This document shows, one piece after another, positions 9,711 to 64,000 of a stretch of 64,000 bases of DNA. The notes under the pieces are model-generated. The model searched no databases, was not told the origin of the DNA, and saw nothing but the letters and a program-made list of their open reading frames with translations. Position 1 is the first letter of the stretch, and each line of letters starts with the position of its first letter. The translations under genes were made by a program, and so were the position numbers. The DNA lies in the IMG/VR virus record IMGVR_UViG_3300028558_000016, positions 278,014 through 342,013 of that record. One strand, given 5' to 3'. The stretch is from a virus.

Positions 9711-10040
9711 ATGGAAGCACAAAAATTCTTAACAGACAAGAAGAAGAAATCATTCGTTGAAGAATTTCTTACGAATGGATTTGAGGATTTCTCTTTTGAG
9801 AACACCATGATGAAGGTCGTCAACGTGGACATTCACACATTGGTCGAAGGAGATCTAACCACAGTGATCATCACATACAAGGATGCTGTTGTCAACTTTG
9901 GAAAGCTTGAGGACAAATACTTCACCAAGCACATCCTCATTGACAAGAACCTTAACGTGTTGACTAACTTGACTTCAGAAGATGTGGTTTATTTAAAAGA
10001 ACTGTTTGACAGATTTAAAACCGAATACATCTTGAACTAA
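9711..10040 (+). CDS. Hypothetical protein
   Basis: ORF in the operon; no motif recognised. Confidence 0.4.
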   Translation: MEAQKFLTDKKKKSFVEEFLTNGFEDFSFENTMMKVVNVDIHTLVEGDLTTVIITYKDAVVNFGKLEDKYFTKHILIDKNLNVLTNLTSEDVVYLKELFDRFKTEYILN

Positions 10041-10333
10041 TGAACCCGACGAAGATATACCACCATACTGGAAAGCTTCCTAAGATCCACTGTGAACAAG
10101 ATTACAGGGACATTCGCATTTACATCAACAACATGTTGCACATCATAATACCTCGTCCAATTGTTTCTGAGGTGACCAAGGACAGCATAAGGCTTCAGTC
10201 CTATCTTGTTGGAAGCAGAGCAGCAAAAAGATATTTCATTGAGGTCGGTTCAGGCGAGAATGCAGACTATTACGGATACGACAACTTCGAGATGTGGAAG
10301 AAGGTATTGGAACTGCTTGATGAAAATATATAA
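10040..10333 (+). CDS. Hypothetical protein
   Basis: ORF with ATGA junction; no motif recognised. Confidence 0.4.
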   Translation: MNPTKIYHHTGKLPKIHCEQDYRDIRIYINNMLHIIIPRPIVSEVTKDSIRLQSYLVGSRAAKRYFIEVGSGENADYYGYDNFEMWKKVLELLDENI

Positions 10334-10336
10334 TTC

Positions 10337-10924
10337 ATGGAGTACAAAGAATTCAAGGATAAACACAAAGGGCAAAAGATCATGGTGGTTGGTTGTGGGA
10401 CTTCAACTGGAACGTTGACCAACCCACAAGACTACATCACAGTTGGCGTCAACGATCTATCGCGCCTCTTTCATCCCAACTACCTCGTTGTGTTGAATGA
10501 CAAATCAAGCTTTGAACACGACAGATGGCAATGGATCGAAGGAACACATTGCCCACACATATTCACACACATAAGAAATTTAGCAGTCAAGGAAGAATCA
10601 AGGATACCATTGCAGCTTGGAAGATATGGCGGAACAGACCTTAACAAGGATGCCGTCGATTACACTTCAAATTCCACCTACGTCGCCTGCATCATTGCGG
10701 CTTACATGGGAGCTTCCAAGATAGGATTGCTTGGTGTTGATTTCACTCTCAATCATTTCTTCGCACAATCAGGAGAGCATTCATTGGCTAAGAAGGCAAA
10801 CGTGATCAACATGGAATACGCAGCATTGAAGGTTGCGATGGACATGAAGGGAATAGAGTTTGTGAATCTTTCTCAAACGTCAAAGATTACTGCTTTGCCT
10901 AAGCAAACAATAGAAGAATTTTAA
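10337..10924 (+). CDS. Hypothetical Rossmann-like protein
   Basis: N-terminal IMVVGCGTS glycine-rich motif; family not identified. Confidence 0.4.
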   Translation: MEYKEFKDKHKGQKIMVVGCGTSTGTLTNPQDYITVGVNDLSRLFHPNYLVVLNDKSSFEHDRWQWIEGTHCPHIFTHIRNLAVKEESRIPLQLGRYGGTDLNKDAVDYTSNSTYVACIIAAYMGASKIGLLGVDFTLNHFFAQSGEHSLAKKANVINMEYAALKVAMDMKGIEFVNLSQTSKITALPKQTIEEF

Positions 10925-11012
10925 TATATAAACCGATTTTGCTTCTGTAAAGATACGGGAAGAAGTAGGGAATAGCTTTCACCTTCACTATGCCGTGGTT
11001 AAGACGATAATA

Positions 11013-11453
11013 ATGTCTCACGAGCGAACAGGTAGCCCCAGCAAAGTCTTTTTAAAAATAACATTTGATTCCATGCGAATAAAACTATTTGAAGAATATC
11101 TAAATGAAGGTGAAGATATTATTTCCAAGATCAAGACTGACATGGAATCTTTTAAGGTGGATGGTCAGCGACCACAAGGAGACTTATCAGTTGGAAAAGA
11201 TTCGGTTTCCGTTAGCTTCAAGCATGTTGGTAATTGGGTTCATGATGAAGAGAGACACAGCGAGGAAGAAACAGAGGATGAGGATTGGAGAGAGGATGAT
11301 GACCAAATGATTTGGGCACATGGAGAATATAAGAAGTATATGGCACAGTTTGATGAATGGGCAAAAGGAAAATCATGGTATTCAAAAGTAAAATTAGGAA
11401 TTGACACAGGTGAGAAAAACTGGACTGAGTTTTCAGTAACAATCAAAAAGTAA
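11013..11453 (+). CDS. Hypothetical acidic protein
   Basis: The track ORF begins at GTG 10995; ATG 11013 is the more plausible start. Asp/Glu-rich centre. Confidence 0.4.
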   Translation: MSHERTGSPSKVFLKITFDSMRIKLFEEYLNEGEDIISKIKTDMESFKVDGQRPQGDLSVGKDSVSVSFKHVGNWVHDEERHSEEETEDEDWREDDDQMIWAHGEYKKYMAQFDEWAKGKSWYSKVKLGIDTGEKNWTEFSVTIKK

Positions 11454-12303: not shown

Positions 12304-12731
12304 AATACGTCTTGATGTTTAAAATCGTCTTCAATGCTGTATTGCTTTATTTTTCTGTACAACGTTCTCTCGCTCATGGTAAGAAGCAAAGCCGCTTTCT
12401 TTCTATTTCCATTACATTGTTTCAATGCTCTTAAGACCAAGGTTTTTTCCCAATCAACACCCAAAGGAATTTCTTCTATGACGCTGAATGTTTCCATTTT
12501 TTTAAGATGAGGAGAATAGTCTGGATCGTTTCTCAGTATAGCATTTGCCAATTCATTATAATCGATCACAAGCTTGGTGTAATCAACTTTTGCGTCTCCT
12601 ACTATTTCAGGTCCATTGATCAGGTCCAATAATTGGTCTTCAGCAGCATCCTGTGTGATGTCTCTGTTTCTGAACTTGATAAGAATATTTCTTACCACAG
12701 CTGAATATTTCATTTCGTCAAATCCTGTCAT
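12300..12731 (-). CDS. DNA-binding protein with C-terminal Fis/NtrC-type helix-turn-helix
   Basis: C-terminus LVLRALKQCNGNRKKAALLLTMSERTLYRKIKQY matches the HTH_8 pattern. Confidence 0.45.
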   Translation of the reverse strand: MTGFDEMKYSAVVRNILIKFRNRDITQDAAEDQLLDLINGPEIVGDAKVDYTKLVIDYNELANAILRNDPDYSPHLKKMETFSVIEEIPLGVDWEKTLVLRALKQCNGNRKKAALLLTMSERTLYRKIKQYSIEDDFKHQDVL

Positions 12732-13069
12732 AACATTATATTACCTTCACTTCCATTTACTGTAACCACCTCATCGTTGAATGAACCTGGCATTATCATT
12801 GCAGTTGACTCTATTCCCATCATGACAACTGGTTTAAGGTTGGTGATGAACATGAAGCTCTTAGGACATAGTTTGTCTTTCCATAATTCTCCCAATTGAG
12901 GCTTTATGTTTGTCACAACTGTTCTTGTATCACCGTCTCCAAACTCAACTGTCAGCTTTAACAGCTTGGATGATTTTGGAACTTCTTCTGCATGGGTGAT
13001 GAATCCAACTTTAATCTCAAGCTTCTTTTCAAGCTCAAGGAATTCCGTAAATTCTATTTGTTCTTTCAT
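12728..13069 (-). CDS. Hypothetical protein
   Basis: ORF; no motif recognised. Confidence 0.4.
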   Translation of the reverse strand: MKEQIEFTEFLELEKKLEIKVGFITHAEEVPKSSKLLKLTVEFGDGDTRTVVTNIKPQLGELWKDKLCPKSFMFITNLKPVVMMGIESTAMIMPGSFNDEVVTVNGSEGNIML

Positions 13070-14272: not shown

Positions 14273-14718
14273 TAGTTCTTTTTATGTTTTGTTACTACCA
14301 CTTCAATGTCATTGAATTTTCCAACATTGGATAAGAGAGTTGAAACTTCGTTTGTGTCGTCGTCGCCCCAATATTCTATGTTGAGCTTCCAATCAGTAAG
14401 CGTTATGTTAACGTTCAAATGATTTTCAAATGCGTCATTTTTCTTCTGCTTGGTTGTTATGTAAAAATTTGCTTCTTTGAACGTAAGGTCTCTTGGATAT
14501 GGAAGTGATATTAGCTTCAACAGCTTTTCCTTTGTTGGTTCTTCTATTGCTGCTTCTATTCGAGACGAAACTTTATATGCCAACGTTGGGTGATCTGCCT
14601 GACGGGTTAGAACTCCTTCAACGCTTGTCACGAAAGCTTTTATGGAGCTTGGCTCAGGTAGAAATTTTAAGATTCCTTCCATTGTTGCGTAATTTGCTGG
14701 TGATATTACTTGAAACAT
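14272..14718 (-). CDS. Hypothetical protein
   Basis: ORF; no motif recognised. Confidence 0.4.
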   Translation of the reverse strand: MFQVISPANYATMEGILKFLPEPSSIKAFVTSVEGVLTRQADHPTLAYKVSSRIEAAIEEPTKEKLLKLISLPYPRDLTFKEANFYITTKQKKNDAFENHLNVNITLTDWKLNIEYWGDDDTNEVSTLLSNVGKFNDIEVVVTKHKKN

Positions 14719-14719
14719 T

Positions 14720-15211
14720 TTATTTTGCTTTAATTTTTAAATACTCATCATGCAAGTCTGCTAACACCGGTGCTGTCAAAAATAACAATCCAAACACTGC
14801 CAAGCTTATTATGCTTAATATAGGAGTTGATAATCCCAACGCTGCAAGCAATAACCATTTGGCCAAATATATTCCGCATACAACAGTTCTAATTCTCGAG
14901 GTCTTTCTTTGTCTTGGAGTTCCTCTTACAGCAGTCTCCATTCTATCCATATCCTCATGCATTTTTCTAAGAAGATCTTTCAACGCGGCATCATATTCCG
15001 CTTGCGTGTATTCTCTATTTGACATTGGTCCTGTTCCAGGTTTCTTTAAAAGAATTTCCTTTGCAGACAAAAGCTTTTTGAAGTTCTCTTCACTTCCACC
15101 TTTATCTGGGTGGTGTTTCATTGCAAGTTTCTTAAAGGCTTTATTTATTTCCTTTTCATCCTTGCATGTAGTTGGAAGTTCCAACAGCTTGTATGCATTT
15201 TCCTTCGTCAT
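14720..15211 (-). CDS. J-domain (DnaJ-like) co-chaperone with C-terminal membrane anchor
   Basis: YKLLELP...KAFKKLAMKHHPDKGG carries the HPD tripeptide of a J-domain; hydrophobic C-terminal segment. Confidence 0.7.
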   Translation of the reverse strand: MTKENAYKLLELPTTCKDEKEINKAFKKLAMKHHPDKGGSEENFKKLLSAKEILLKKPGTGPMSNREYTQAEYDAALKDLLRKMHEDMDRMETAVRGTPRQRKTSRIRTVVCGIYLAKWLLLAALGLSTPILSIISLAVFGLLFLTAPVLADLHDEYLKIKAK

Positions 15212-15213
15212 CG

Positions 15214-15897
15214 TTAAATATTGTCTGCTATTCCGTTGTCTACTTCGATTGTTATAGAACCGTCTAAAATTCCATCAACAAGTCCTTGAATATCTGCGCT
15301 TGGTCCGCTCCCATACGATTTGCCATACTTGCTTCCTTCCGGAATTTGAAAGTCAAATGATTTGGTGTAGGTCTTGCTCTGAATCTTTTCCTTCATGCAA
15401 TGAATTGTTTCTTCTGGAATCTCATGTATGTCACCAAGAACTTGCACAGCCTTTAATAATCCATCCATTGGATCATCTTCTCTTCTGGAATTTCTTTCTT
15501 GATTTGCTATTCCACATTCTGTTATTCTGTTCTTTTCAAATGCAGCTTCGATCCTTTCTATTTCATTTGCAGTATATCCGGTTAATTCAGCTTGTTGCAA
15601 TGCTACATCTTCTCTGTAGTTGAATCTTCCATTCCTTCTGAAATATTCTGAGTCTTGGACTTGACTTATGTTATCCTTGTTTATTCCGGTCAATACTCTT
15701 TCACGAATGACGTTCATCAATGCCACCCAAGCTCCAACGGTTCCTCCTGTTTTTGCGTCATAGTTATAAGTTCCTTGTGAGTATGCAATTAGATTTCCAA
15801 CAGCACAGTTGCAAGGAGACAAGTGTCTTAAATTTCCGTTCTCGTATGCGTCAACTAATATGTCAACGCTTCTTACGAATTGTTCAGGGTTTTTCAT
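15214..15897 (-). CDS. Hypothetical protein
   Basis: ORF; no motif recognised. Confidence 0.45.
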   Translation of the reverse strand: MKNPEQFVRSVDILVDAYENGNLRHLSPCNCAVGNLIAYSQGTYNYDAKTGGTVGAWVALMNVIRERVLTGINKDNISQVQDSEYFRRNGRFNYREDVALQQAELTGYTANEIERIEAAFEKNRITECGIANQERNSRREDDPMDGLLKAVQVLGDIHEIPEETIHCMKEKIQSKTYTKSFDFQIPEGSKYGKSYGSGPSADIQGLVDGILDGSITIEVDNGIADNI

Positions 15898-16520
15898 ATA
15901 TTGTAAAATAATCTGTTCTTAAACATCTCCAACATTTCTAATTTTCTTTTTTCTGTCAGTTCAGGAAGTTTTCCCCATTTCTTAGGAATGTCCTGATCAT
16001 CTTTTACGTCCCATGGTTTTCCAATCAACATCAATGAAACACAAACACCATCAATAGGTCTTACATAATGCCAACCCAATGGATCGAGCATCTCATAATA
16101 ATTATTTCCTGTCATTTCAACTTTTGCAATCTCTCTAACAACAACGGTGTGTTTATTCTCGTCTTCTCCAACCACCTTCAAAGCTTTGCTTACTTTATCC
16201 TTATGCTTTTCCCAATCAGAAGAATCTTGTCTCAACACATTTAATTCAACGAATCCTGGAGAGTGTCTCGTTCCTAATCCCATCTCATATTTTCCAGACA
16301 ACACATGCATTGCAGATGGCCATGGATGAGGATGGTATAAAGCTTCCTCTGGTTTGCATGGATGAATCACGTGCAACATCAATCGTGCATCAACGATTTG
16401 CGTCCACAGACGTTCAACTCTTGGATGGTGATAATTCACATCAAGAGTGTTCCATATTGATGGGTTCCTTAAAAGGTCCATCAATACGGTTTGCTCTATA
16501 TGTTTTAAGTCTTCGATCAT
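15894..16520 (-). CDS. Hypothetical protein, His-rich (possible cupin-like metal site)
   Basis: HVIHPCKPEEALYHPHPWPSAMHVLSG histidine cluster; weak. Confidence 0.35.
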   Translation of the reverse strand: MIEDLKHIEQTVLMDLLRNPSIWNTLDVNYHHPRVERLWTQIVDARLMLHVIHPCKPEEALYHPHPWPSAMHVLSGKYEMGLGTRHSPGFVELNVLRQDSSDWEKHKDKVSKALKVVGEDENKHTVVVREIAKVEMTGNNYYEMLDPLGWHYVRPIDGVCVSLMLIGKPWDVKDDQDIPKKWGKLPELTEKRKLEMLEMFKNRLFYNI

Positions 16521-34287: not shown

Positions 34288-36081
34288 ATGAAAAGATCAA
34301 CTAAACATTTCGGAGATTATTCCGATGCGGAGTTAAAAAGCATGAGTCCTGAGCAACTCATTGCTATCATCTTGGAAGGTCAGAACGATGATAACTTCAT
34401 CATCATGACAGACTCTTACAAAATGACTCATCACCTGCTTTATCCTAATGGATTAAGAAGGGTTTACTCATATATGGAACCACGCGGCGGCGAAATGCCT
34501 TACACCGTATTCTTTGGATTGCAGTATTACATCAAAAGGTATCTTGCTGGAAGAAGAATCACCAAAGAGAAAATCGAAGATGCACGTCAAGCAAACATTG
34601 CACACTTTGGATTTGATTGCTTTGATGATACAATGTGGTATCACATATTAAATAAGCACGATGGTAAACTTCCATTGAGAATTAAAGCTATTCCTGAAGG
34701 AACTCCGATCGCTGTTAAGAATATCGTGATGGATATGGAAAACTTAGACCTTGATAATTGTGCAGCATTGACAAACATCACAGAAACATTGTTAATGAAA
34801 ATCTGGGCAACATGTACTGTCGCAGCTTACAATAGAATCATCAAGGAATTAATAACAAAGAATCACGCGATCACTTCAGACCTTCCAGCATTCTTGATTG
34901 ATTACATGCACCATGATTTTGGTTACAGAGGAACTTCATCAGAAGAGACTGCACGCTTAATGGCTGCGGCTGCAATGACAAGTTTTAAAGGAACTGACAC
35001 AATGGGCGGTTTAAGCTTAATCAAGAAATATTATTCTCCTGATGGAGCAACATGGTCTGAATGCATGGCAGGTTTCTCTGTTATTGCGTCTGAACACTCA
35101 GTTGTTTGTTCATACGGTGGAAGACACAAAGAAGCGAAATCATACCTTGACATTATAAACAAGGTTAAGAACCATCCTAAAATTAAGATAGCAAAACCAT
35201 TGAGCGGAGTAATTATTCTATCTTTGGTGTCTGACACTTATAACATCTACAATGTGTCTAAGAAAATTCTTAAACAATTGGAAAAAGAATTTATTGGATG
35301 GACAAACGATAACGGCATTCCAATTAAGATTGTTATTCGTCCTGACTCGGGAGTTCCTGCTAACGTGTTATTTGGATATAACGATGTTGTTAAAGGAATG
35401 GTTGCTGACAAAGATGCTTTAGCAGTAGCACCAATCGACCTTTGCAAAAGAGTTGCAGATGACATGTCGATAACTTTAGAAGAAGGAACAGAGCTTGTGA
35501 CCAAAGGAGTATTTGAAATACTGTTCGATGAATTTGGATCAACAACAAACACTAAAGGTTACAGAGTATTCCATCCACAAATAGGAGTATTACAAGGTGA
35601 TGGCGTTAAGTATACTGTCATCGATGAATTCCATGAGATCATGAAAACGAAAGAATACATGATAGACATCATGATGCTTGTTGTTGGTTCAGGCGGAAAA
35701 AATCTACAGGCTCACGATCGTGATGAACAAAAATGGGCAATCAAAGCAACTGAGGTTGGCATCGATAATGACTCAGTAATGGGTGGTATAGAAACAGTTC
35801 AAATAGAAAAAAATCCAATCACAGATCCTGGAAAGAAATCTAAAAAAGGAGATCTTAAGCTTGGCAAGAAAATGCTTAAGGTAGGCCCTGATTACGATTT
35901 CACAAAAGAATGGATGAACTTTAAAACCTTCCAAGAAGGTGAAGAAGGATTTGATACTGTAACAAACCTTTTAGTTCCTGTATTTGAAATGGGAGAAATC
36001 CTCGTTGAATACGATTTTGAAGAAGTGAGAGCGAACAGTGCGGTAGTATATCCTCAAATTAAAAAAACGGCTTTAGCCTAA
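34288..36081 (+). CDS. nadV: Nicotinamide phosphoribosyltransferase (NadV/NAMPT)
   Basis: FIIMTDSYKMTHHLLYPNGLRRVYSYMEPRGG closely parallels the NAMPT segment [31 protein letters not shown]; 597 aa. Confidence 0.85.
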   Translation: MKRSTKHFGDYSDAELKSMSPEQLIAIILEGQNDDNFIIMTDSYKMTHHLLYPNGLRRVYSYMEPRGGEMPYTVFFGLQYYIKRYLAGRRITKEKIEDARQANIAHFGFDCFDDTMWYHILNKHDGKLPLRIKAIPEGTPIAVKNIVMDMENLDLDNCAALTNITETLLMKIWATCTVAAYNRIIKELITKNHAITSDLPAFLIDYMHHDFGYRGTSSEETARLMAAAAMTSFKGTDTMGGLSLIKKYYSPDGATWSECMAGFSVIASEHSVVCSYGGRHKEAKSYLDIINKVKNHPKIKIAKPLSGVIILSLVSDTYNIYNVSKKILKQLEKEFIGWTNDNGIPIKIVIRPDSGVPANVLFGYNDVVKGMVADKDALAVAPIDLCKRVADDMSITLEEGTELVTKGVFEILFDEFGSTTNTKGYRVFHPQIGVLQGDGVKYTVIDEFHEIMKTKEYMIDIMMLVVGSGGKNLQAHDRDEQKWAIKATEVGIDNDSVMGGIETVQIEKNPITDPGKKSKKGDLKLGKKMLKVGPDYDFTKEWMNFKTFQEGEEGFDTVTNLLVPVFEMGEILVEYDFEEVRANSAVVYPQIKKTALA

Positions 36082-37905: not shown

Positions 37906-38409
37906 ATGAGACCTATAGATCATAACGACACCTTATTGTACTTTGAAGAAGAAACTGGTTTTCTTTATAAGAAGAAGAAATATAGCGGCGCAGATTATTT
38001 TTCTCCGTTAAATTTTTGTACTTTAGAGTGTACACCTAAAAAAGATAATCATGGCAACACAATTAACACCGTCAAAGAAGCAATTCAAGAACATACAGGA
38101 AATATACAACTACGCAGAGAACCAAAACGACAACCTGCACGTTGGGGACTTAGACCATACGTCAGCCTGCGAGATAGAACACCGAGACGGGTCCAAGTTT
38201 TATTTAACCAATGTTCACATGGAATTGGTACGGTTCACAACAAAAACATTCGACGAAACTGTGTACATAGCATACTCGGAACATCACCAACCACTCGTGT
38301 ATATGGAATCGGACCTCGTGTCAGAACCAAAAATAATCCCATTAGGAAAGAAGAAGCTCGTAAAAAAGAAATAAGATTTCCAATATCACATGGGACGAGA
38401 AAATTTTAA
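37906..38409 (+). CDS. Hypothetical protein; ambiguous frame (ORF 38051..38374 in the +1 frame looks more protein-like downstream of about 38050)
   Basis: The first roughly 50 codons look genuine, then the frame becomes Arg-rich and atypical. The overlapping +1 frame has normal composition, and an A-rich heptamer ccuAAAAAAg sits at the junction. Confidence 0.3.
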   Translation: MRPIDHNDTLLYFEEETGFLYKKKKYSGADYFSPLNFCTLECTPKKDNHGNTINTVKEAIQEHTGNIQLRREPKRQPARWGLRPYVSLRDRTPRRVQVLFNQCSHGIGTVHNKNIRRNCVHSILGTSPTTRVYGIGPRVRTKNNPIRKEEARKKEIRFPISHGTRKF

Positions 38410-38845
38410 GCTATTAATACGTAATTTAAGAACGATGGAAACAACATGCGGGATATTTTTATTCTTAAAAAACGGAAAACTGTTGTTGGGACACGTAACA
38501 AACACTCAAGACAAATGGAGCATTCCGAAAGGACTTCCGGATGATGGAGAAGAATTGTTCGATGCAGCCAAACGAGAGATGTTCGAGGAGTCAAACATAG
38601 AATACGATAAGCTTAAGATAAACACCATTGTAAACAACCAATATACTTATTATAAGAATGGAAAGAAGAAGCTGTTCTCATTAACAGTTCACACTCATAA
38701 TGAGGAAAAAGATTTTGATTTGAAATGTCATTCTTTGGTAAATGATGATTTTCCTGAAATAGATGGATATAAATTTGTCACAATAAAAGAAGCATTGGAT
38801 ATGGACATCCAAGAAACACAAAAAGAAATATTAAGAAATATATGA
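38390..38845 (+). CDS. Nudix hydrolase
   Basis: GLPDDGEELFDAAKREMFEESNI fits Gx5Ex7REUxEEx(G/N)U. Confidence 0.65.
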   Translation: MGRENFKLLIRNLRTMETTCGIFLFLKNGKLLLGHVTNTQDKWSIPKGLPDDGEELFDAAKREMFEESNIEYDKLKINTIVNNQYTYYKNGKKKLFSLTVHTHNEEKDFDLKCHSLVNDDFPEIDGYKFVTIKEALDMDIQETQKEILRNI

Positions 38846-39348
38846 ATAAGCTCGAATATAGAATGTATGGAATAGTTCCTTACAACATTTCAGAAATACA
38901 AAAAGGAATCCAATTTGGACATGCTGTTGTAGAATACTCGTTGAAGTATTTTAAGAACGAAGACTTTCAACAGTGGGCCAAGAAGCACAAAACATTCATG
39001 GTTATGAATGGAGGAACAACCAATATGGGAGAAGGAACAATTCAAGGAAGACCCGATTGGATGGTTGAAGAACTTAAAGGGTCATTAAATAAATACGCCG
39101 ATTTACTTTCCAAAAATAAAATCAAATGCGCTTATTTCTTTGAGCCAGACTTAAATGATGCTTTAACTGCCGCGGTATTTCTTGCAGATGAAAGAGTTTT
39201 CGACAAGATTAAATATCCTGATTATGTTCCTCTTTCTTTTGATTTAGCAAAAAATGATCCACAACACGAGAAAGAATGGGTCAAATCTATAGGAGGAAAA
39301 CAAAATGTTTTCCTTCGTGAATTCATATCTAAACTAAGATTTGCATGA
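38842..39348 (+). CDS. Hypothetical protein
   Basis: ORF with ATGA junctions on both sides. Confidence 0.4.
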   Translation: MNKLEYRMYGIVPYNISEIQKGIQFGHAVVEYSLKYFKNEDFQQWAKKHKTFMVMNGGTTNMGEGTIQGRPDWMVEELKGSLNKYADLLSKNKIKCAYFFEPDLNDALTAAVFLADERVFDKIKYPDYVPLSFDLAKNDPQHEKEWVKSIGGKQNVFLREFISKLRFA

Positions 39349-40031
39349 AAACGACAGACAAATACGTATTATTTTATACTGAGGTATTTTCTCAGTGGCA
39401 TCCTTCCAATTTTGAAGTAGGAGGTAAAAAATTCTGCACAGCAGAACAATTCATGATGTATTTCAAAGCATTAACGTTCGGTGATCAAGAGATTGCAGAC
39501 AAGATATTAGCAACAAATAGTCCACGTGAACAAAAGAAACTTGGACGCGCTGTTAAAGGATTTGATGCTGTTAAATGGAATGCAATAGCCAAGGAAGTTG
39601 TATTCAAAGGAAACAGAGCTAAGTTTCAACAGAATCCAGAAATGTTCGAACAATTAATGGCAACAGGACACAAAGAACTTGTTGAAGCTTCCCCTTATGA
39701 TACTATATGGGGAATAGGCTTTGATGAAAATGCTCCTGAAGCTCTTGATAAGTCAACATGGAATGGAACAAATTGGCTTGGCGAAGTATTAACAAAGCTT
39801 AGAGATGTTCTTAGAAGAGAACAGACAATTCAAAACATAGTGAAACATGGTGAAGCTGAATTGGAAAAATTTGCCAGGGATTATCCAAATGACATAGGAC
39901 GATTGTATGAAAGCTATAAAAAATTGAAAACACAATCTTGGTCTGAAGATTTTTTAAGAGGATATTTAGGAGCTATAACAGATTTAATTATTATTAAAAA
40001 AGGACATTGGGGAGACTCATTTGTAAAATAA
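39345..40031 (+). CDS. NADAR-domain protein (YbiA-like; NAD/ADP-ribose N-glycosidase family)
   Basis: VLFYTEVFSQWHPSNFEVGGKKFCTAEQFMMYFKA...LGRAVKGFD...KFQQNP...LVEASPYDTIWGIGFDE parallels the E. coli YbiA pattern. Confidence 0.7.
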   Translation: MKTTDKYVLFYTEVFSQWHPSNFEVGGKKFCTAEQFMMYFKALTFGDQEIADKILATNSPREQKKLGRAVKGFDAVKWNAIAKEVVFKGNRAKFQQNPEMFEQLMATGHKELVEASPYDTIWGIGFDENAPEALDKSTWNGTNWLGEVLTKLRDVLRREQTIQNIVKHGEAELEKFARDYPNDIGRLYESYKKLKTQSWSEDFLRGYLGAITDLIIIKKGHWGDSFVK

Positions 40032-40225
40032 TGGGAAATAAAAACAGATTATACAGAAATACCGATGATTGTTTTATCGGTGGAGTTTGTTCTGGAATAT
40101 CAGACAAGCTTGGAATAGATCCAACATACGTTCGTGTATTGTGGGCTCTTTTCATATTCCTATTTGGATATGGATTATTGTTATACATCCTCCTATGGAT
40201 TATAATGCCTGAAAATGAAAACTAA
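40031..40225 (+). CDS. PspC-domain membrane protein
   Basis: LYRNTDDCFIGGVCSGISDKLGIDPTYVRVLWALFIFLFGYGLLLYILLWIIMPE matches the PspC consensus; TAATG junction with the NADAR gene. Confidence 0.6.
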   Translation: MGNKNRLYRNTDDCFIGGVCSGISDKLGIDPTYVRVLWALFIFLFGYGLLLYILLWIIMPENEN

Positions 40226-40487
40226 ATACGTCATAACTTTCCTTTTGAGCCTGACGATCTGTTTGTGTTCAGTATTGTATTTCCAATTTTATTGGATGTT
40301 ATTCATGCCTTTATTGGCCACAAATTTATTTCTTCCATTCTATATGATGGATCTTAAATCGGTAGAAACAAAGATGGAAATAATATTCTTCTTCTTGGTT
40401 CCGTTTGCAAGCGTTTTGTGGATTTTTGTAGATGGACTTCCTGGAACAATTTCTTACTTTGGAGATAAATGGAAAGAATTGAAATGA
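40215..40487 (+). CDS. Membrane protein
   Basis: Multiple hydrophobic helices. Confidence 0.4.
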   Translation: MKTKYVITFLLSLTICLCSVLYFQFYWMLFMPLLATNLFLPFYMMDLKSVETKMEIIFFFLVPFASVLWIFVDGLPGTISYFGDKWKELK

Positions 40488-40654
40488 CAGCTTTATTAAT
40501 CATATACATTATCGGTGCCTTGTTATTTCTATTCCTACTTTCATTAGATGCCAGCGCATTTAAACCTAAACATATAATACTAATAACAGTATTTTGGTTT
40601 CTGTGGTTGCTTTACTTCTTGGTCATTTCAGTGACGCACTTCAAGAGAAAATAA
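40469..40654 (+). CDS. Small membrane protein
   Basis: Two hydrophobic helices. Confidence 0.35.
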   Translation: MERIEMTALLIIYIIGALLFLFLLSLDASAFKPKHIILITVFWFLWLLYFLVISVTHFKRK

Positions 40655-40668
40655 TAGATATATAAGTC

Positions 40669-41592
40669 GTGAAAAGATTCCACGATTATAGCACATTCAA
40701 CGGCCTTGAAAATCTAAAACAGATTGTTGCCAAGAAAGATCCTTCCATGAGCGAAGACCTCATGAAGGCACTATTTCCATTAAGAGATAAGAACATTGGC
40801 AAAACATTGAAGGACATCATAAAGAGATTTGAAAAATCCGCTGAATACGATACACCGAACAAATGGTTCAGTCCAAACAAGTATAACACTTTTATGGAAT
40901 ACTTTCAAAGAGGATTAACCGACAAGAAGAAAGAAGAAATAGAAGCAACCATAGATCAATATCTCATGGTCATGCCTTCTGAATCAAACATTGAATCAAT
41001 AGGAAATTTCTCAGACACTTCATCGATATTAAGATTGAAGAAACCGACTAAAGACGTAGTTAAGGATTTAATGGATTTTGGAATAAGTGATGTGAGCACA
41101 TTAAACTTTATAAGCCTAAAGCTTCTCAAATGTTATTACCACAGGGTGCATTGCCCAGTAAGCGGAACTATACAAAAGATAACATTCATTGGAAGAGAAG
41201 AACCGTTGTTTGGAGACAATTCCCTATGGGTGGTTGAATTCAATTCAGAAGAAGGAAGAATTTACATGCTTGTAGTTGGAGAACTTTCTATACAGGATTT
41301 TAATTTCAACTTCAAAGAAGGAGACAAGGTTAACAAATTTGAAGAGCTCGGAAAATTCAATTGGGGTTCTCAGCTCGTTTTAATATATGCAAAAGATTCA
41401 TTCGTAAGCGAACCGTTGATCATAGAAAAGGAGAAATATTTTGTTGGTGATGGAATATTTAATAAGACAAAAATAGTTCAAGGCGATATTCTTAATTCAA
41501 TGCCAATTGACCAGATAGGAAATGGACAAAGAAACGGAACAATATACGGAGATGATATTTTAAAAGCACCAACAGGAGCAAACATATTTTAA
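40669..41592 (+). CDS. Phosphatidylserine decarboxylase-like protein
   Basis: GTG start. C-terminal LGKFNWGSQLVLIY resembles the PSD self-cleavage motif LGxFxMGSTVIxLF. EYFQRGL resembles the PSD FFxRxL motif. Length 307 aa. Confidence 0.45.
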   Translation: MKRFHDYSTFNGLENLKQIVAKKDPSMSEDLMKALFPLRDKNIGKTLKDIIKRFEKSAEYDTPNKWFSPNKYNTFMEYFQRGLTDKKKEEIEATIDQYLMVMPSESNIESIGNFSDTSSILRLKKPTKDVVKDLMDFGISDVSTLNFISLKLLKCYYHRVHCPVSGTIQKITFIGREEPLFGDNSLWVVEFNSEEGRIYMLVVGELSIQDFNFNFKEGDKVNKFEELGKFNWGSQLVLIYAKDSFVSEPLIIEKEKYFVGDGIFNKTKIVQGDILNSMPIDQIGNGQRNGTIYGDDILKAPTGANIF

Positions 41593-41930
41593 TGGAACAA
41601 GCAAAGATCGATAAGATAAACAGCATAATCGCAGATGCAAAGAATAAAATTAAATTTCTTGAATGTGACGGTTCAACGAGAGTATTTGATTACCTTCTAA
41701 CTAAGAATAACATCAAACATACTGTAATGGTTGGAACTGCATCACTGGAAGATAAAGAGATGCTACATTATTGGATCAAAATTGATGACATGATATTGGA
41801 CCTAAAATCAAAGATGTGGTTTGGAGATGAAGCCTCAGAAGGATTATTCAAAACAAGCAAGGTCAAGTATAACGGTAAACCAATAGAGCTAAATACCTCC
41901 GAATTGATGTACCATATTTTAACAAGTTAA
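41592..41930 (+). CDS. Hypothetical protein
   Basis: ATGA junction; no motif recognised. Confidence 0.4.
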   Translation: MEQAKIDKINSIIADAKNKIKFLECDGSTRVFDYLLTKNNIKHTVMVGTASLEDKEMLHYWIKIDDMILDLKSKMWFGDEASEGLFKTSKVKYNGKPIELNTSELMYHILTS

Positions 41931-41955
41931 ATTTTCGAGGCTCAAAAATATCTTT

Positions 41956-41963
41956 TATATTTG
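41956..41963 (+). promoter_or_regulatory. Promoter -7 box TATATTTG, near-leaderless
   Basis: Exact TAnnTTTG 5 nt upstream of ATG 41968. Confidence 0.4.
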
Positions 41964-41967
41964 TTGC

Positions 41968-42195
41968 ATGAGCAATGAATTAATAAGAATACTTAAAGAC
42001 ATAACACATGACAATGAAGAAAAAAGACTTCAAAAAGCGAGTGAATGTTCTGATGGAATAAGCTATTACAATTGTAATGCTTTACCAATGGTAGATCAAT
42101 TAGCAAATGAACTTTCCAAGTTGTCTGAAGTTGAATTGTCATTGGCCTTAAGAATTCTCGTTAGAAAGACTCAGAAAAAGGCCCAGAAAAAATAA
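41968..42195 (+). CDS. Hypothetical protein (75 aa)
   Basis: ORF; no motif recognised. Confidence 0.4.
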   Translation: MSNELIRILKDITHDNEEKRLQKASECSDGISYYNCNALPMVDQLANELSKLSEVELSLALRILVRKTQKKAQKK

Positions 42196-42235: not shown

Positions 42236-42566
42236 CATAGTTAAATGGCTTTATGCAATATATGTGTAGCTGTTCTACCTTCATCAGATGCAAGGACAAA
42301 AATTTAGGTGCGGTTATCTCCTTGCTAAACTATCGCATAGGTCAGGATTGCATTGAGAAATGCAATTGTATGGACAGACTTTAGGTATGATCATAATTTT
42401 AGAAACAAAAAAGGTATATAAGAATATAACAAGTCATGAAAACAACATTGTCATTAAGTCTAAGTTTGTCGCTATCCTTATCAGGATGGACTAACCGGGC
42501 TATGTGATAATTTCTGACTAATAAGAAATTTGAATGAACCCGGTGGAAACATCGGGTTTTTTATTT
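42236..42566 (+). ncRNA. Candidate small RNA between a promoter copy and an intrinsic terminator, upstream of the tRNA cluster
   Basis: About 330 nt with no ORF of 60 aa or more. Internal perfect hairpin ATTGCATTgagaAATGCAAT. Ends in the terminator aACCCGGTGgaaaCATCGGGTtttttt. Confidence 0.35.
42537..42566 (+). terminator. Rho-independent terminator
   Basis: ACCCGGTG gaaa CATCGGGT followed by tttttt. Confidence 0.6.
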
Positions 42567-42575
42567 TATACACAT

Positions 42576-42658
42576 GCCCATGTGGCGGAATTGGTAGACG
42601 CGCCGGTCTTAGGAACCGGTGCCTTTAAGGCGTGCAGGTTCGAGTCCTGTCATGGGTA
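42576..42658 (+). tRNA. tRNA-Leu (anticodon TAG), class II
   Basis: GCCCATG acceptor, AATTGGTAG D-loop, anticodon loop CTTAGGA, long variable arm, GTTCGAGT T-loop; no encoded CCA. Confidence 0.8.
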
Positions 42659-42739
42659 CAACGTGGTGAAAGTACATTCAGACTGTACCATCAGATTTTA
42701 GCTACTGATGAAGCATTTGTGGTGATGCTGCTGCGAATT

Positions 42740-42826
42740 GGTGAGATGTCCGAGTGGTTTAAGGAGCAACCCTGGAAAGGTTGTATACGGGAAACCGTAT
42801 CGTGGGTTCGAATCCCACTCTCACCG
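42740..42826 (+). tRNA. tRNA-Ser (anticodon GGA), class II
   Basis: GGTGAGA acceptor, 3-bp D-stem with GAGTGGTTTAA loop, anticodon loop CTGGAAA, long variable arm, discriminator G. Confidence 0.8.
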
Positions 42827-42836
42827 CAAATAAAAT

Positions 42837-42920
42837 GGAAGGTTGGTAGAGCGGTCTATTGCACCAGTCTTGAAAACTGGAGATCCTACGGGGTCCGTGA
42901 GTTCGAATCTCACACCTTCC
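42837..42920 (+). tRNA. tRNA-Ser (anticodon TGA), class II
   Basis: GGAAGGT acceptor, D-arm GTA/GAGCGGTCTAT/TGC, anticodon stem CCAGT with loop CTTGAAA; very similar to E. coli tRNA-Ser(UGA). Confidence 0.8.
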
Positions 42921-42926
42921 GCAATT

Positions 42927-43014
42927 GGAGAGCTACTCAAGTTGGTTAAGAGGCGCGTTTGCTAAACGTGTAGGACGAGAAATCGTTGGGTGGGTTCGAA
43001 CCCCACGCTCTCCG
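42927..43014 (+). tRNA. tRNA-Ser (anticodon GCT), class II
   Basis: GGAGAGC acceptor, anticodon loop TTGCTAA, long variable arm, discriminator G. Confidence 0.75.
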
Positions 43015-43025
43015 CAGAAAATTCT

Positions 43026-43108
43026 GCCCCCATGGTGGAATTGGTAGACACGCAGGACTTAAAATCCTGTGCCCTTAGGGCGTACGAGTTCGAGTCTCGT
43101 TGGGGGTA
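43026..43108 (+). tRNA. tRNA-Leu (anticodon TAA), class II
   Basis: GCCCCCA acceptor, anticodon stem CAGGA/TCCTG with loop CTTAAAA, long variable arm. Confidence 0.8.
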
Positions 43109-43115
43109 CATAAAT

Positions 43116-43197
43116 GCCGAGTTGGCGGAATTGGTAGACGCGCTGGTCTCAAACACCAGTGACGAAAGTCGTGTGGGTTCGAGTCCCACACTCGGTA
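43116..43197 (+). tRNA. tRNA-Leu (anticodon CAA), class II
   Basis: GCCGAGT acceptor, anticodon stem CTGGT/ACCAG with loop CTCAAAC, long variable arm. Confidence 0.8.
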
Positions 43198-43213
43198 CAA
43201 GAAGAAGAATAAA

Positions 43214-44677: not shown

Positions 44678-45308
44678 CGATGACATTGAGATCAATGTTG
44701 AGTTAGGGTTTGATGCCTTTGTACAAGAGAAGGTTGATGGAGCAAACTGTGGAATCAGTTGGTTCGATGGACCCATTCTCAGAAACAGAACCCATGTGTT
44801 AAGAAAGGGATTTGAAAGAGACACTCCAGCAAAGAAACAATTTGTTCCAGCTTGGAATTGGTTGCATGAAAGAGAAGATGACTTGAAGGAGATGATGAAG
44901 AAGTGGAATGGACAGATAACTGTTTATGGAGAGTGGATGCTTGCAAAACATTCTATTGGATATGAGAAGCTTCCAGATTATTTTCTTGCTTATGACATTT
45001 GGTCGTGTGAAGAAAACAAGTTTGTTTCTCCGAAGGAATGCAAGGAACTTTTGAATGGGACTGGCATAAGATGGATCGAAGCAGAAAGAATAAGCATTCA
45101 ATCGTTCTCTGATTTGAAGTCAGTTCTTGATGTTCCCTCTAAGTACAGAGATGGAATTAAAGAAGGAATAGTTATCAAGAAAACTGACGAAGACGATAAG
45201 TGGATAGAGAAGACTTTCAAGGTTGTTAGAAAAGATTTTGAAAGGGCTGATGAAAGCTGGAATAAGAAAAAGCTTGAAAAGAATAAGCTGATAAAGAGGA
45301 GTGCCTGA
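44655..45308 (+). CDS. Minimal ATP-dependent polynucleotide (probably RNA) ligase, nucleotidyltransferase domain only
   Basis: Motif I EKVDGAN (KxDG), motif IV EGIVIKK, motif V KVVRKD. The track ORF starts at 44604 inside leuS; 44655 is the internal ATG. Confidence 0.5.
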   Translation: MGKSNLYDDDIEINVELGFDAFVQEKVDGANCGISWFDGPILRNRTHVLRKGFERDTPAKKQFVPAWNWLHEREDDLKEMMKKWNGQITVYGEWMLAKHSIGYEKLPDYFLAYDIWSCEENKFVSPKECKELLNGTGIRWIEAERISIQSFSDLKSVLDVPSKYRDGIKEGIVIKKTDEDDKWIEKTFKVVRKDFERADESWNKKKLEKNKLIKRSA

Positions 45309-45380
45309 GTGGCTGAAAGGACCGGTCTCGAAAACCGGCACACCCAAAAGGTGTCGTGAGTTCGAATCTCACCTCCTCTG
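45295..45380 (+). tRNA. tRNA-Ser (anticodon CGA), class II
   Basis: AGAGGAG acceptor (A1-U72), D-arm CCT/GAGTGGCTGAA/AGG, anticodon loop CTCGAAA, long variable arm, discriminator G; overlaps the last 14 nt of the ligase ORF. Confidence 0.75.
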
Positions 45381-45419
45381 CATTTTTTAATTTGATGATT
45401 TTTTTGTAAATTCACTATC

Positions 45420-45725
45420 ATGAATGATGAAGATAAAAAAATAAAGGGATCATTGTTTTTCTTGTACATCGGCAAGCTTAAAGAATTGGGTTTGATAGAA
45501 GGTGGCGCAGGAGATTTGACCATGAAAGGTTTTGACATTGCCATTGATGCCTATAACAGTGGACATAGATTGTCAGATGAGGAGATTAGTAATTTTCTCG
45601 AAGCCGCTCCTGGAATGGACGATGACGACACAATAGAGGCAGCATTTGGAATGATAGCCAAGATGCAAGAAATTGGATTTGATGGAATGAAAGAATTGGT
45701 TGAACGAGTAAAGAAAACATTATGA
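45420..45725 (+). CDS. Hypothetical acidic protein
   Basis: ORF with ATGA junction to Sir2. Confidence 0.4.
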   Translation: MNDEDKKIKGSLFFLYIGKLKELGLIEGGAGDLTMKGFDIAIDAYNSGHRLSDEEISNFLEAAPGMDDDDTIEAAFGMIAKMQEIGFDGMKELVERVKKTL

Positions 45726-46432
45726 AAAAGAAATTAGTGGTGTTTAGCGGTGCAGGAGTTTCTGCTGAGAGCGGAATTCCTACATTCAGAGATTCAAATG
45801 GTCTTTGGGAAAACCATAAGATGGAAGATGTTGCTACTCCAGAAGGATGGGAGAAAAACAGAGAGCTTGTTCTCAACTTCTACAATCTTATGAGAACGAA
45901 ACTCAAAGCAGTTGTTCCGAATAAAGCTCACAATATAATTGCAGAGCTTGAAGAACATTTTGAAGTTACAGTCATCACACAAAACATAGATGACTTGCAT
46001 GAGAGAAGCGGCTCAAAGAAGGTCATACATCTTCATGGAGAATTAATGAAGAGCAGAAGCACATTTAATCCAAATCTAAAATACGAGTGTACTGGAAATA
46101 TAAACATAGGTGACAAATGTGAGAAAGGTTCTCAATTGAGGCCTGACATAGTTTGGTTTCATGAAAATGTTTATCACCTTGACACTGCGGCTGAATTGGT
46201 AGAACAGTGCGATATTCTTCTTGTTGTTGGAACTTCATTAAATGTTTGGCCTGCAGCAGGATTGTTATATGTGACGAAACCGGAAACTGAAATATATTGC
46301 ATTGATCCAAAAACAGTTGTTGGAAGTGATATTCAAGTTACTCACATAAAGAAGAAAGCGAGTGAAGGGATGGAGAAATTTAAAAAGATTATTCTCGAGA
46401 AAAAAGATAAGAAAGAAAATTGCTGTTTATAA
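45722..46432 (+). CDS. Sir2-family NAD-dependent protein deacylase / ADP-ribosyltransferase (sirtuin, CobB-like)
   Basis: FSGAGVSAESGIPTFR, TQNIDDLHERSG, catalytic His in IHLHGEL, and VVGTS are canonical sirtuin motifs. Confidence 0.8.
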   Translation: MKKKLVVFSGAGVSAESGIPTFRDSNGLWENHKMEDVATPEGWEKNRELVLNFYNLMRTKLKAVVPNKAHNIIAELEEHFEVTVITQNIDDLHERSGSKKVIHLHGELMKSRSTFNPNLKYECTGNINIGDKCEKGSQLRPDIVWFHENVYHLDTAAELVEQCDILLVVGTSLNVWPAAGLLYVTKPETEIYCIDPKTVVGSDIQVTHIKKKASEGMEKFKKIILEKKDKKENCCL

Positions 46433-46436
46433 TAAT

Positions 46437-46518
46437 GCCCAGGTGTTGGAATTGGTAGACAAGCACGGTTGAGGGCCGTGTGCAGTAATGCGTAGGGGTT
46501 CGAGTCCCCTTCTGGGTA
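46437..46518 (+). tRNA. tRNA-Leu (anticodon GAG), class II
   Basis: GCCCAGG acceptor, anticodon stem CACGG/CCGTG with loop TTGAGGG, long variable arm; the next ORF starts 2 nt after its 3' end. Confidence 0.75.
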
Positions 46519-46519
46519 C

Positions 46520-62468: not shown

Positions 62469-64000
62469 ATGACTCTTAAAGAATTATTTGACCTAAAAGA
62501 GGTATTAAGCACTGACTCTATTTCGACCACGAGGCTAACAGTCAATGATAACTTTTCCAAACTTAGAAAAGGATTATCGGCTTTAATAGACACACTTCAG
62601 GTAAACGAAGGGCCAAACATCGTAGTAGATTCAGTTGCAGCCACAGACATTGTGGCCAATACTTTTTCAACACCTCTTCCAAAAGGAGGAACATATAAAT
62701 TCACTGTAAATTCAAACGGTGAGATAACTGCAACAAGCGTTCTTGGAAAGGTTGTCGTAGAGACACCAAGATTAAGGCTTGATCCAGATCCAACCCTCAT
62801 TGCTTTTCAAGCGGGTGAGATTCGTTGGAGCGGAACAGATTTCGTTGGATGGAATGGAACTCAATGGATTTCGTTTACGGCCGGAGCAAACATTGTTATC
62901 ACTGCAGGCCCTCTCGTAGTAAATCAACTTTATACAATAGTATCATACGGTGCAGGCGATGACTTCACAAACGTGGGCGCATCTTCTAATGCAGCCGGAG
63001 TCATATTTGTTGCAACCGGAATAACTCCTACAACATGGACAAACGGTTCCGTTCTCGCAAGCAGCAACGGAGAAGCAAACACATCAAGCAATGTTGGAAC
63101 TGGAATAGGATCAGCACTTCCTAAAGCAGGAGTAAATCTTCCATTCAAATCATTTGCAGCAGGCGCAGGAATATTTTTAGACAACGTAACAGATCCTAAT
63201 ACGATTGTGATCAGCAACGTTGGTGCAACATCTGGTTACTCAGGAACTTCTGGAACATCAGGAAGATCTGGTTACTCAGGATTAAGCGGTTACTCAGGAA
63301 GCATTGGAGCAAATGGTACATCAGGTTTTAGCGGTTATTCGGGAGCTCCAGGTCTTTCTGGATTCTCAGGAATAGCAACATCTGGATATTCTGGAACATC
63401 AGGTTTTGGAAGTTCTGGATTTAGTGGTTACTCAGGAGTTTCTGGAACAAGCGGTTTTTCTGGAGCATCAGGAGTAAGCGGTTACAGTGGAACATCTGGT
63501 CAAGAAGGTCCAATTGGACCTGCAGGTGTTGCGGGTGGAATTGGTCCTGCTGGTACATCAGGAACATCAGGATTTTCTGGTTACTCAGGACAAGCTGGAG
63601 CACCAGTTCTTGGTCCAGCAGAAGATGGAAGTTATCTTGACGGATTCTGGACAGACTTAACTCCATTAACTCCAATCGGAACATTTGCTGATAGGGTGAA
63701 CGAAATAATGCTTGCATTACTTCCTCCACCAGCACCAGCTCTTACAGATTGGAGTCAAACAACTTTAGCGCTTTCAGTTCAAGGAAAATTAAGCTTTGAC
63801 AACTTGAGTCCTATCATTGGTTACAATAACGCAAGCTCTGCAACGCCACCAGTATTTGTGGATGGAGTGTTTGTGCTTTCAGGAAAAAGACTTGGAATAA
63901 CTCAACAGGTTGGAGGTACAAAACTTTCAGGAGTGTTGAATTATCAAGTCGTAACAGGACCAGGAGTTCCAACACCAGCATATCCAGCACAAACATTTGG
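62469..64000 (+). CDS. Tail-fibre protein with N-terminal fibre-like domain and collagen-like G-X-S/G-P-A repeats; 3' end lies outside the window
   Basis: Open frame from ATG 62469 to the window end (not in the track because there is no stop). NDNFSKL N-terminal motif typical of phage fibres. SGYSGTSG...GPIGPAGVAGGIGPAG repeats at 63232-63605. Confidence 0.65.
   Translation, partial: MTLKELFDLKEVLSTDSISTTRLTVNDNFSKLRKGLSALIDTLQVNEGPNIVVDSVAATDIVANTFSTPLPKGGTYKFTVNSNGEITATSVLGKVVVETPRLRLDPDPTLIAFQAGEIRWSGTDFVGWNGTQWISFTAGANIVITAGPLVVNQLYTIVSYGAGDDFTNVGASSNAAGVIFVATGITPTTWTNGSVLASSNGEANTSSNVGTGIGSALPKAGVNLPFKSFAAGAGIFLDNVTDPNTIVISNVGATSGYSGTSGTSGRSGYSGLSGYSGSIGANGTSGFSGYSGAPGLSGFSGIATSGYSGTSGFGSSGFSGYSGVSGTSGFSGASGVSGYSGTSGQEGPIGPAGVAGGIGPAGTSGTSGFSGYSGQAGAPVLGPAEDGSYLDGFWTDLTPLTPIGTFADRVNEIMLALLPPPAPALTDWSQTTLALSVQGKLSFDNLSPIIGYNNASSATPPVFVDGVFVLSGKRLGITQQVGGTKLSGVLNYQVVTGPGVPTPAYPAQTF
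63232..63605 (+). repeat. Coding G-X-S / G-P-A triplet repeat array
   Basis: Same repeat type as 1668-6403, within the partial fibre gene. Confidence 0.7.

Follow-up and report, generated by a model that had tools for sequence, protein, structure and literature searches.

A NADAR protein with a predicted intact active site, fused to a small-protein family and encoded among NAD+/ADP-ribose and RNA-repair genes in a very large phage

The linkage of NAMPT, NADAR and Macro genes in phage genomes raises the question of whether NADARs encoded near NAD+ salvage genes have nucleic acids or soluble ADP-ribose derivatives as their substrates. It is posed here by an open reading frame (ORF) of 228 amino acids (aa) in a 64,000-nucleotide stretch of IMG/VR record IMGVR_UViG_3300028558_000016, hereafter the window. 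A reading of the sequence alone had proposed that this ORF encodes a NADAR domain protein which erases nucleic-acid ADP-ribosylation, either countering DarT-like toxins or acting as partner of a PARP-like enzyme of the phage. Our preferred interpretation, held with moderate confidence, is that the protein is a catalytically competent stand-alone/YbiA-like NADAR ADP-ribosyl N-glycohydrolase, acting on ADP-ribose (ADPr) attached to guanine (G-ADPr), and probably to cytosine (C-ADPr), in single-stranded DNA or RNA and so reversing the action of host toxins.

The family call was confirmed. In the hidden Markov model search proposed for it, the Pfam NADAR profile (PF08719, DUF1768) matched residues 13-157 with E 3.5e-50 and 170.9 bits, against a gathering cutoff of 35.1, and the match spanned 153 of the 163 profile positions. 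The ORF also matched phrog_1017 (E 1.3e-52) and passed the cutoff of NCBIfam TIGR02464, 'riboflavin biosynthesis intermediates N-glycosidase' (158.1 bits vs 73.7). As sequence matches, all three are far above chance. The motifs quoted by the sequence-only reading are literally present as EQFMMYFKA, LGRAVKGFD, KFQQNP and LVEASPYDTIWGIG, but its first motif is FYTEVFSQWHPSNF, not FYSxxxxxSNF. The ATG start is backed by alignment of the N-terminus (MKTTDKYV...) with homologues. At least eight independent metagenomic contigs encode the identical protein, which rules out an assembly artefact for the ORF and its long C-terminus; the longest of these contigs measures 482 kb, indicating that the gene is real and comes from a very large phage. 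Megablast of positions 38000-42000 against 50,697 phage records gave no match and the phage thus has no close sequenced relative among them, whilst tblastn found homologues of the NADAR in 764 phage records, mainly of large myoviruses.

An AlphaFold2 (AF2) model of the protein, built with 57 homologues in the alignment, had a mean predicted local distance difference test score (pLDDT) of 93.3. The best Foldseek match was 8BAU, the NADAR of Phytophthora nicotianae var. parasitica (PnNADAR) with ADP-ribose (E 1.5e-11, template modelling (TM) score 0.74, probability 1.0), followed by Escherichia coli YbiA, 2B3W (E 9e-8, probability 1.0, TM 0.77 normalised to YbiA). These were the sole significant matches among solved structures; among viral models in BFVD, 46 NADARs were matched at E <= 1e-3. 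As modelled, the protein has the YbiA-like fold, a helical core with two small flanking beta-sheets.

Residue roles were mapped through HMMER alignments to 8BAU and read against Schuller et al. 2023 (PMC11543638). Residues E43, K50, R79, W89, E125, D130 and W133 of PnNADAR correspond to E34, K41, R68, W78, E114, D119 and W122 of the window protein, all seven of which are invariant across the 57 homologues. PnNADAR R93 aligns with A82, which K83 adjoins. The mutation-sensitive equivalents are E88, K95 and D171 of the E. coli C7 NADAR and E36 and K43 of T4 AdfN, and mutation of E88/K95 or of E36/K43 abolished activity (PMC11543638, PMC11257639). Since all seven ligand and catalytic residues are kept and the E...K pair is that of C7 NADAR and AdfN, the active site looks fully competent.

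The position of PnNADAR E125 sets the subfamilies, being Glu in YbiA, Asp in DarT1-linked NADARs (BC4488) and His in T4-type phage NADARs (PMC11543638). In the window protein it is Glu114. On account of this residue and of sequence similarity, the protein is assigned to the stand-alone/YbiA-like branch, a type common in large phages, and not to the DarT1-linked antitoxin branch or that of T4 AdfN. A profile of its clade retrieved PnNADAR (8BAU) at E 1.5e-33 and 119 bits and YbiA (2B3W) at E 3.3e-19 and 72 bits; even with a limit of E <= 10 it missed the structure of the DarT1-linked NADAR. With phmmer, 8BAU was matched at E 5e-17, whilst BLASTP against T4 gp30.3 (AdfN) gave E 4.9, no detectable pairwise similarity. 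Identity in a joint alignment was 58% to the NADAR of Bacillus phage WH1, 42% to that of Seunavirus (Vequintavirinae; 42-44% over residues 1-154), 40% to that of Phapecoctavirus, 36% to PnNADAR (about 31-36% overall), 31% to YbiA (28-31% overall) and 20% to T4 AdfN.

PnNADAR is thus the best match in both sequence and structure and has the same catalytic and ADP-ribose-binding residues, Glu125 included. It is a single-domain protein without a DarT link and hydrolyses G-ADPr in vitro (PMC11543638). It differs in being eukaryotic, in carrying a short extension at its N-terminus and, behind the WGIG motif, an insertion of its own, and in lacking the 71-aa C-terminal module of the window protein. 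The NADARs of phages Bas60 (Vequintavirinae) and Bas32 (T5-like) are likewise orphan proteins, encoded by large lytic phages and not part of the T4 AdfN cluster (PMC11257639), but are about 170 aa long, have no fused tail, and come from phages with known hosts and defence systems. The likeness to Bas60 is one of subfamily level only, drawn through the Seunavirus NADAR and not from the Bas60 and Bas32 sequences themselves; the 60 best tblastn rows for a Seunavirus homologue contained no BASEL phage. T4 AdfN shares the superfamily and the E...K pair seven residues apart, and is also a phage-encoded orphan, one that removes G-ADPr and defeats DarTG1 (PMC11257639). T4-type NADARs differ by having His in place of Glu114 (PMC11543638), and the T4 NADAR does not remove C-ADPr (PMC12945103). 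DarG1, the DarT1-associated BC4488 antitoxin, shares the superfamily and presumed chemistry, but has Asp at the defining position, a basic N-terminal beta1-beta2-alpha1 extension and an adjacent DarT1. In the AF2 model the window core begins at residue 2, with its first strand at residues 7-10 and no N-terminal helix, and the gene has no adjacent DarT1 gene, being flanked by those of a PTH2-like protein and a PspC-domain protein.

Because the protein passes the TIGR02464 cutoff, the NCBI annotation rule would name it a riboflavin-intermediate N-glycosidase, a point missed in the sequence-only reading. A housekeeping enzyme of YbiA type (COG3236), destroying reactive intermediates of riboflavin biosynthesis, would fit that score, the similar fold and the YbiA-defining Glu114. 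It would also fit the JGI name of many homologues, 'ribA/ribD-fused uncharacterized protein', and the activity of YbiA on riboflavin intermediates, as cited in PMC11543638. We nevertheless consider this role highly improbable. No riboflavin gene, and no ribA/ribD neighbour or counterpart of the LexA-controlled dinG-ybiB operon of E. coli, was found among the scanned window genes or the recurrent neighbours of the 81 viral loci described below, and NAD+ salvage and ADP-ribose genes dominate the context. The clade profile also favours PnNADAR over YbiA, policing riboflavin intermediates meets no obvious phage need, and YbiA itself hydrolyses G- and C-ADPr too (PMC11125620, PMC12945103).

Reversal of guanine ADP-ribosylation, which the sequence-only reading attributed to some NADARs, holds for every subfamily tested: in vitro, all NADAR families examined strip both DNA and RNA of G-ADPr (PMC11543638, PMC11125620, PMC11833690, PMC12945103). 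For the stand-alone NADAR and YbiA families, C-ADPr is a substrate as well (PMC11125620, PMC11833690, PMC12945103). NADARs are inactive on thymidine-ADPr, on phosphate-end ADPr and on 2'-OH ADPr (PMC11125620, PMC11833690, PMC12945103). With T4 AdfN, NADAR-Bas32 or NADAR-Bas60, phages can grow again on DarTG1 hosts, and these three NADARs come from unrelated phage groups (PMC11257639). Given the apparently intact active site and these precedents in vitro and in vivo, the proposal that the window protein disarms DarT is plausible. It is not new, this role having been reported before for the phage NADARs AdfN, Bas32 and Bas60.

From this we infer a substrate, a counter-defence role and a link to ADP-ribose recycling. 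The helical core would bind ADP-ribose, holding the pyrophosphate through K41, R68, W78 and W122 and the distal ribose through E34 and E114. The N-glycosidic bond between ribose C1'' and the nucleobase would then be hydrolysed, with guanine N2 as the expected and cytosine as a probable target on single-stranded DNA or RNA, restoring the base and releasing free ADP-ribose. During infection, the enzyme would reverse the base ADP-ribosylation that host toxins, of DarT1 or ScARP/pierisin type, place on phage DNA or RNA. The neighbouring Nudix enzymes could break down the freed ADP-ribose and so feed the NAMPT/NMNAT route of the phage. The phage, a very large one, carries the NADAR as accessory cargo in a block of NAD+/ADP-ribose and RNA-repair genes, among them Nudix, NAMPT, NMNAT-like, Sir2 and PARP genes.

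Several observations weigh against this interpretation. E. coli YbiA and the T4 NADAR hydrolyse G-ADPr in vitro, yet do not rescue cells from DarT1 toxicity (PMC11125620), so competence in vitro is no proof of the physiological target. DarT1-linked NADARs have a basic N-terminal extension with a proposed role in binding single-stranded DNA, and the window protein has none. Its C-terminal tail provides no basic extension either, being near neutral (12 Lys+Arg vs 11 Asp+Glu), and on this charge we rejected the tail as a nucleic-acid-binding extension like that of DarG1. The PADLOC scan gave no match to DarG, nor to DarT. Sister phages (IMG/VR loci L098, L099 and L103) have no NADAR core at the locus, which makes it dispensable cargo. 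Finally, the strongest genomic link of the clade is to NAD+ salvage genes, a linkage that Iyer et al. (PMC9503650) take as favouring soluble ADP-ribose derivatives as substrates.

As a side observation, the NADAR core matched the PADLOC candidate-defence model PDC-M42C over its full length (E 9.8e-43) and, weakly, the NCBIfam 'NADAR family anti-phage protein DS32_2' (49 bits vs a cutoff of 240). Close relatives of the clade thus also sit in bacterial candidate defence clusters.

The genomic link was counted in 80 IMG/VR loci with close NADAR homologues and in the related locus L007, 81 in all, by clustering all ORFs within 10-kb flanks. NAD+ salvage genes are the dominant association of the clade, absent from the sequence-only reading. 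NAMPT was found in 38 of the 81 loci, of which 33 have it on the NADAR strand and at most 2 kb away, usually as the next gene upstream (median gap about -81 nt); when NADARs were collapsed at 80% identity, it was present for 25 of 62 clusters. Other recurrent neighbours were a Prs-like phosphoribosyltransferase (30 loci), a Macro domain (27 loci, 25 of them within 2 kb, typically downstream of NADAR), YqeY (24), NadM-Nudix (23), Sir2 (22), Thg1 (16) and a nucleoside deoxyribosyltransferase-like protein (13). A same-strand NAMPT-NADAR-Macro cassette recurs in large phages (loci L011-L090), and these other neighbours often accompany it. Neighbourhoods of NADAR with NadV/NadM were noted earlier by Iyer et al. 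2022 (PMC9503650), and our counts put numbers on them. The window NADAR belongs to the clade that stands beside NadV/NAMPT, NadM-Nudix, Sir2 and Macro genes in many large phages. The window differs from the phage NAD+ salvage islands of that study in that NAMPT lies 3.3 kb upstream of NADAR, with NYN, nucleotidyltransferase, Nudix and PTH2-like genes between them, and no Macro or Prs-like gene was found in its 64 kb.

This linkage, together with the NAMPT, NMNAT-like, two Nudix and Sir2 genes of the window itself, is what speaks for the main rival to our interpretation, also proposed by Iyer et al. 2022 from the NadM/NadV neighbourhoods (PMC9503650). The enzyme would act mainly on soluble N-glycosidic ADP-ribose derivatives (candidates are immune second messengers, toxic by-products and ADP-ribose adducts) and would partner phage NAD+ reconstitution instead of nucleic-acid repair, aiding NAMPT and NMNAT in rebuilding NAD+ under an NAD+-depleting defence. 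We regard this as possible but less probable than action on nucleic acids. The literature cited here reports no small-molecule ADP-ribose substrate for any NADAR, and the ADP-ribose-related activities demonstrated are all on nucleobase adducts. The NARP2 pathway, as summarised in PMC13464706, works experimentally with NAMPT and NMNAT alone. In the window, L007 and L098, moreover, NAMPT and the NADAR slot are about 3-5 kb apart, with RNA-related genes between.

The phage PARP invoked by the sequence-only reading does exist: an ORF 12.5 kb upstream of NADAR matches PF00644 (E 4.6e-26) and has an intact H-Y-E triad, as read from its translation; its long N-terminal region has no counterpart in Pfam. 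In L092, a 374-kb relative, a PARP gene (9923-11263) is syntenic with genes for the CCA-adding enzyme and the NMNAT-like, Nudix and NAMPT proteins, indicating that PARP belongs to the NAD+ island. Were NADAR to erase or recycle the marks of this transferase, the two would form a writer/eraser pair within one co-directional NAD+-related block, and guanine-ADPr is indeed the mark left by DarT1, an ARTD relative of PARPs (PMC11543638). The proposed partnership found no support, however, and we judge it very unlikely. The linkages known for PARP-type enzymes on nucleic acid, phosphate-end and 2'-OH ADPr, are not cleaved by the NADARs tested (PMC11833690). None of the 81 loci has a PARP homologue within 10 kb of its NADAR gene, a flank that would miss the 12.5-kb spacing of the window, and no NADAR was seen in the 10 kb examined around the L092 PARP. 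A single-sequence search of IMG/VR for PARP returned two loci only, too few for a test of co-occurrence, again with flanks shorter than the spacing.

The C-terminal tail is a separately evolved small protein, a new point missed in the sequence-only reading. Homologues are mostly about 160 aa long and about 9% carry unrelated C-terminal additions, such as a tRNA-binding domain in P0064 or a Macro domain in P0116. The window tail is shared with only one NADAR homologue, P0002 (58% identity overall), to which the tail is 56% and the core 62% identical, indicating similar constraint on both. In the AF2 model the tail comprises three helices continuing the last core helix (helices at 144-179, 181-196 and 201-225). 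An exhaustive HMMER search with the tail alone retrieved 16 representatives (best E 1.5e-16), most of them free-standing proteins of 66-80 aa, with the family motif ...YP.DIG.LY.SYK.L..Q.WS..FL.GYL.AISDLIIIKKG.W. The family is about 70 aa in length, and a shorter form of its motif is ...GYL.AISDLIIIKKGHW. It had no Pfam or PHROG match, no viral model in BFVD covered the tail, and a fold search of the PDB gave nothing meaningful beyond the NADAR core.

In L098, L099 and L103, the small gene stands alone between the PTH2-like gene and a phosphatidylserine decarboxylase gene, without NADAR core or PspC, whilst in the window and in L007 the family is fused to NADAR. As the free-standing gene occupies the same slot, the gene of the 228-aa protein is a NADAR core joined to the small gene resident there, and both NADAR and PspC are accessory cargo in a slot of variable content. 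The fusion could be read as a Rosetta-stone link, in which the small family targets or regulates ADP-ribose removal and the NAMPT-linked NADAR clade is a third component of NAD+ reconstitution, not simply an anti-DarT factor. The tail might then direct the hydrolase to tRNA and the translation machinery, or to the membrane neighbourhood of PspC and phosphatidylserine decarboxylase. We find this version doubtful. If the window protein is active as preferred above, a very large environmental phage would join those with orphan, 'antitoxin-like' NADAR enzymes, and such enzymes would be swapped in and out of a variable slot inside an NAD+/RNA-repair island. Fusion to an otherwise free-standing protein offers a handle on an uncharacterised family. 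None of these results overturns current understanding.

The free-standing tail-family gene is usually followed at once by genes for a small membrane protein and for phosphatidylserine decarboxylase. The sequence-only reading had described translational coupling (TAATG) of NADAR to a PspC-domain membrane protein. Both the protein, by its PF04024 match (E 2.3e-24) and one hydrophobic segment (a 19-mer at residues 40-58, mean Kyte-Doolittle 2.56), and the overlap, of the NADAR TAA (40029-40031) with the PspC ATG (40031-40033), are real. The PspC-domain protein is below the equivalog cutoffs for true PspC (47.5 vs 104 bits). A functional meaning of the overlap was not supported. Coupling that sets stoichiometry, with the helical tail docking the enzyme to the membrane protein, would agree with the overlap and with the five syntenic relatives, of which the window and L007 have both genes and L098, L099 and L103 have neither. 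We think such a pair scarcely probable. PspC is near NADAR in only one of the 81 loci (L007), where a 132-aa ORF intervenes, and the window and L007 may be sister lineages, reducing the presence/absence pattern to a single event. Stop/start overlaps run throughout the gene string, four-base overlaps being the rule: the Nudix and PTH2-like genes overlap, and the PTH2-like stop (TGA) overlaps the NADAR ATG as ATGA. Given its occurrence in one locus, the coupling is a local packing feature and not a conserved partnership.

Table 1. Positions of the NADAR fusion gene, other window features and related genes at other loci (window coordinates unless a locus is named).
Feature	Position	Strand	Remarks
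NADAR core + tail fusion ORF, complete	39345..40031	+	228 aa, ATG start, stop codon included
NADAR catalytic core, aa 1-157	39345..39815	+	Pfam, AF2, Foldseek; E34, K41, R68, W78, E114, D119, W122
C-terminal helical module, 71 aa, aa 158-228	39816..40028	+	fused copy of uncharacterised small-protein family
tRNA-binding-domain protein, free-standing	12728..13069	-	PF01588
PARP-like ADP-ribosyltransferase, 482 aa	25340..26788	+	PF00644
CCA-adding enzyme	starts 29315		
NMN/NaMN adenylyltransferase-like domain protein, 463 aa	31097..32488	+	PF01467; TIGR00482 E 2.3e-13, below cutoff
Nudix protein, 281 aa	33145..33990	+	PF00293; NadM-Nudix cluster HMM match E 1.5e-21
NAMPT (NadV)	34288..36081	+	PF18127, PF04095
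NYN RNase	starts 36083		
RlaP-like nucleotidyltransferase	starts 36869		
Nudix hydrolase, 151 aa	38390..38845	+	PF00293 E 9.9e-15; weak NCBIfam likeness to RNA pyrophosphohydrolase, NudE
PTH2-fold protein (peptidyl-tRNA hydrolase 2-like), 168 aa	38842..39348	+	phrog_3668; AF2 pLDDT 92.7
PspC-domain single-pass membrane protein, 64 aa	40031..40225	+	PF04024, 85.4 bits vs cutoff 25
Phosphatidylserine decarboxylase homologue	40669..41592	+	PF02666 E 2.4e-17
Eight tRNA genes	42576..43198, 45295..45381, 46437..46519	+	Leu (tag, taa, caa, gag), Ser (gga, tga, gct, cga)
Class I aminoacyl-tRNA synthetase-like gene, 487 aa	43214..44677	+	
Sir2-family protein	45722..46432	+	PF02146 E 2.8e-45
2H-like phosphoesterase	starts 48554		
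PNK/phosphatase	starts 49588		
Tail-family copy, L098	6001-6213		
Tail-family copy, L099	132-344		
Tail-family copy, L103	364-792		
Tail-family copy, L094	1824-2048		
PARP-like homologue, L091	9920-11308		

NADAR lies within a long co-directional block at 22.7-51 kb that is rich in NAD+/ADP-ribose and RNA-repair/translation genes (Table 1). The 281-aa Nudix protein is akin to the Nudix portion of NadM-Nudix enzymes from phages. The shorter Nudix gene stands two genes upstream of NADAR in the string of overlapping genes. Between them, the 168-aa protein had no Pfam or NCBIfam family match, but its model matched the PTH2 structures 2ZV3, 3ERJ, 1WN2, 1Q7S (Bit1) and 1XTY in Foldseek at E 2e-4 to 5e-3. 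This PTH2-like fold led us to reject the protein as a stand-in for the Macro neighbour usual in the clade. The gene is kept upstream at the same position in L007 and L098; the model has a C-terminal helical addition, and the protein has 3,362 unnamed homologues. The window genes scanned included no Tpt1/KptA gene, and the idea that NADAR clears ADPr>p after RNA repair was set aside since it has no local partner in the window.

A promoter scan performed at chance level (35 sites vs 34.3 expected), so no transcription unit can be drawn from it. On the plus strand, the sole convincing terminator-like site (42536-42559) lies directly upstream of the first tRNA gene. In the stretches 14499..15911 (+) and 62597..63996 (-), the only ORFs are odd, leucine-rich or low-complexity ones, and these stretches may be non-coding or repetitive rather than genes. 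Phosphatidylserine decarboxylase is kept in L007, L098, L099 and L103, preceded by variable small membrane proteins (PspC and hydrophobic ORFs of 90 and 61 aa). All eight tRNAs are of the kinds with a long variable arm, and their genes are interleaved with that of the 487-aa aminoacyl-tRNA synthetase-like protein. The NADAR homologue P0064 (53% identity) is fused to a tRNA-binding domain like that of the free-standing protein in the window, which hints that some members of the NADAR clade act on tRNA.

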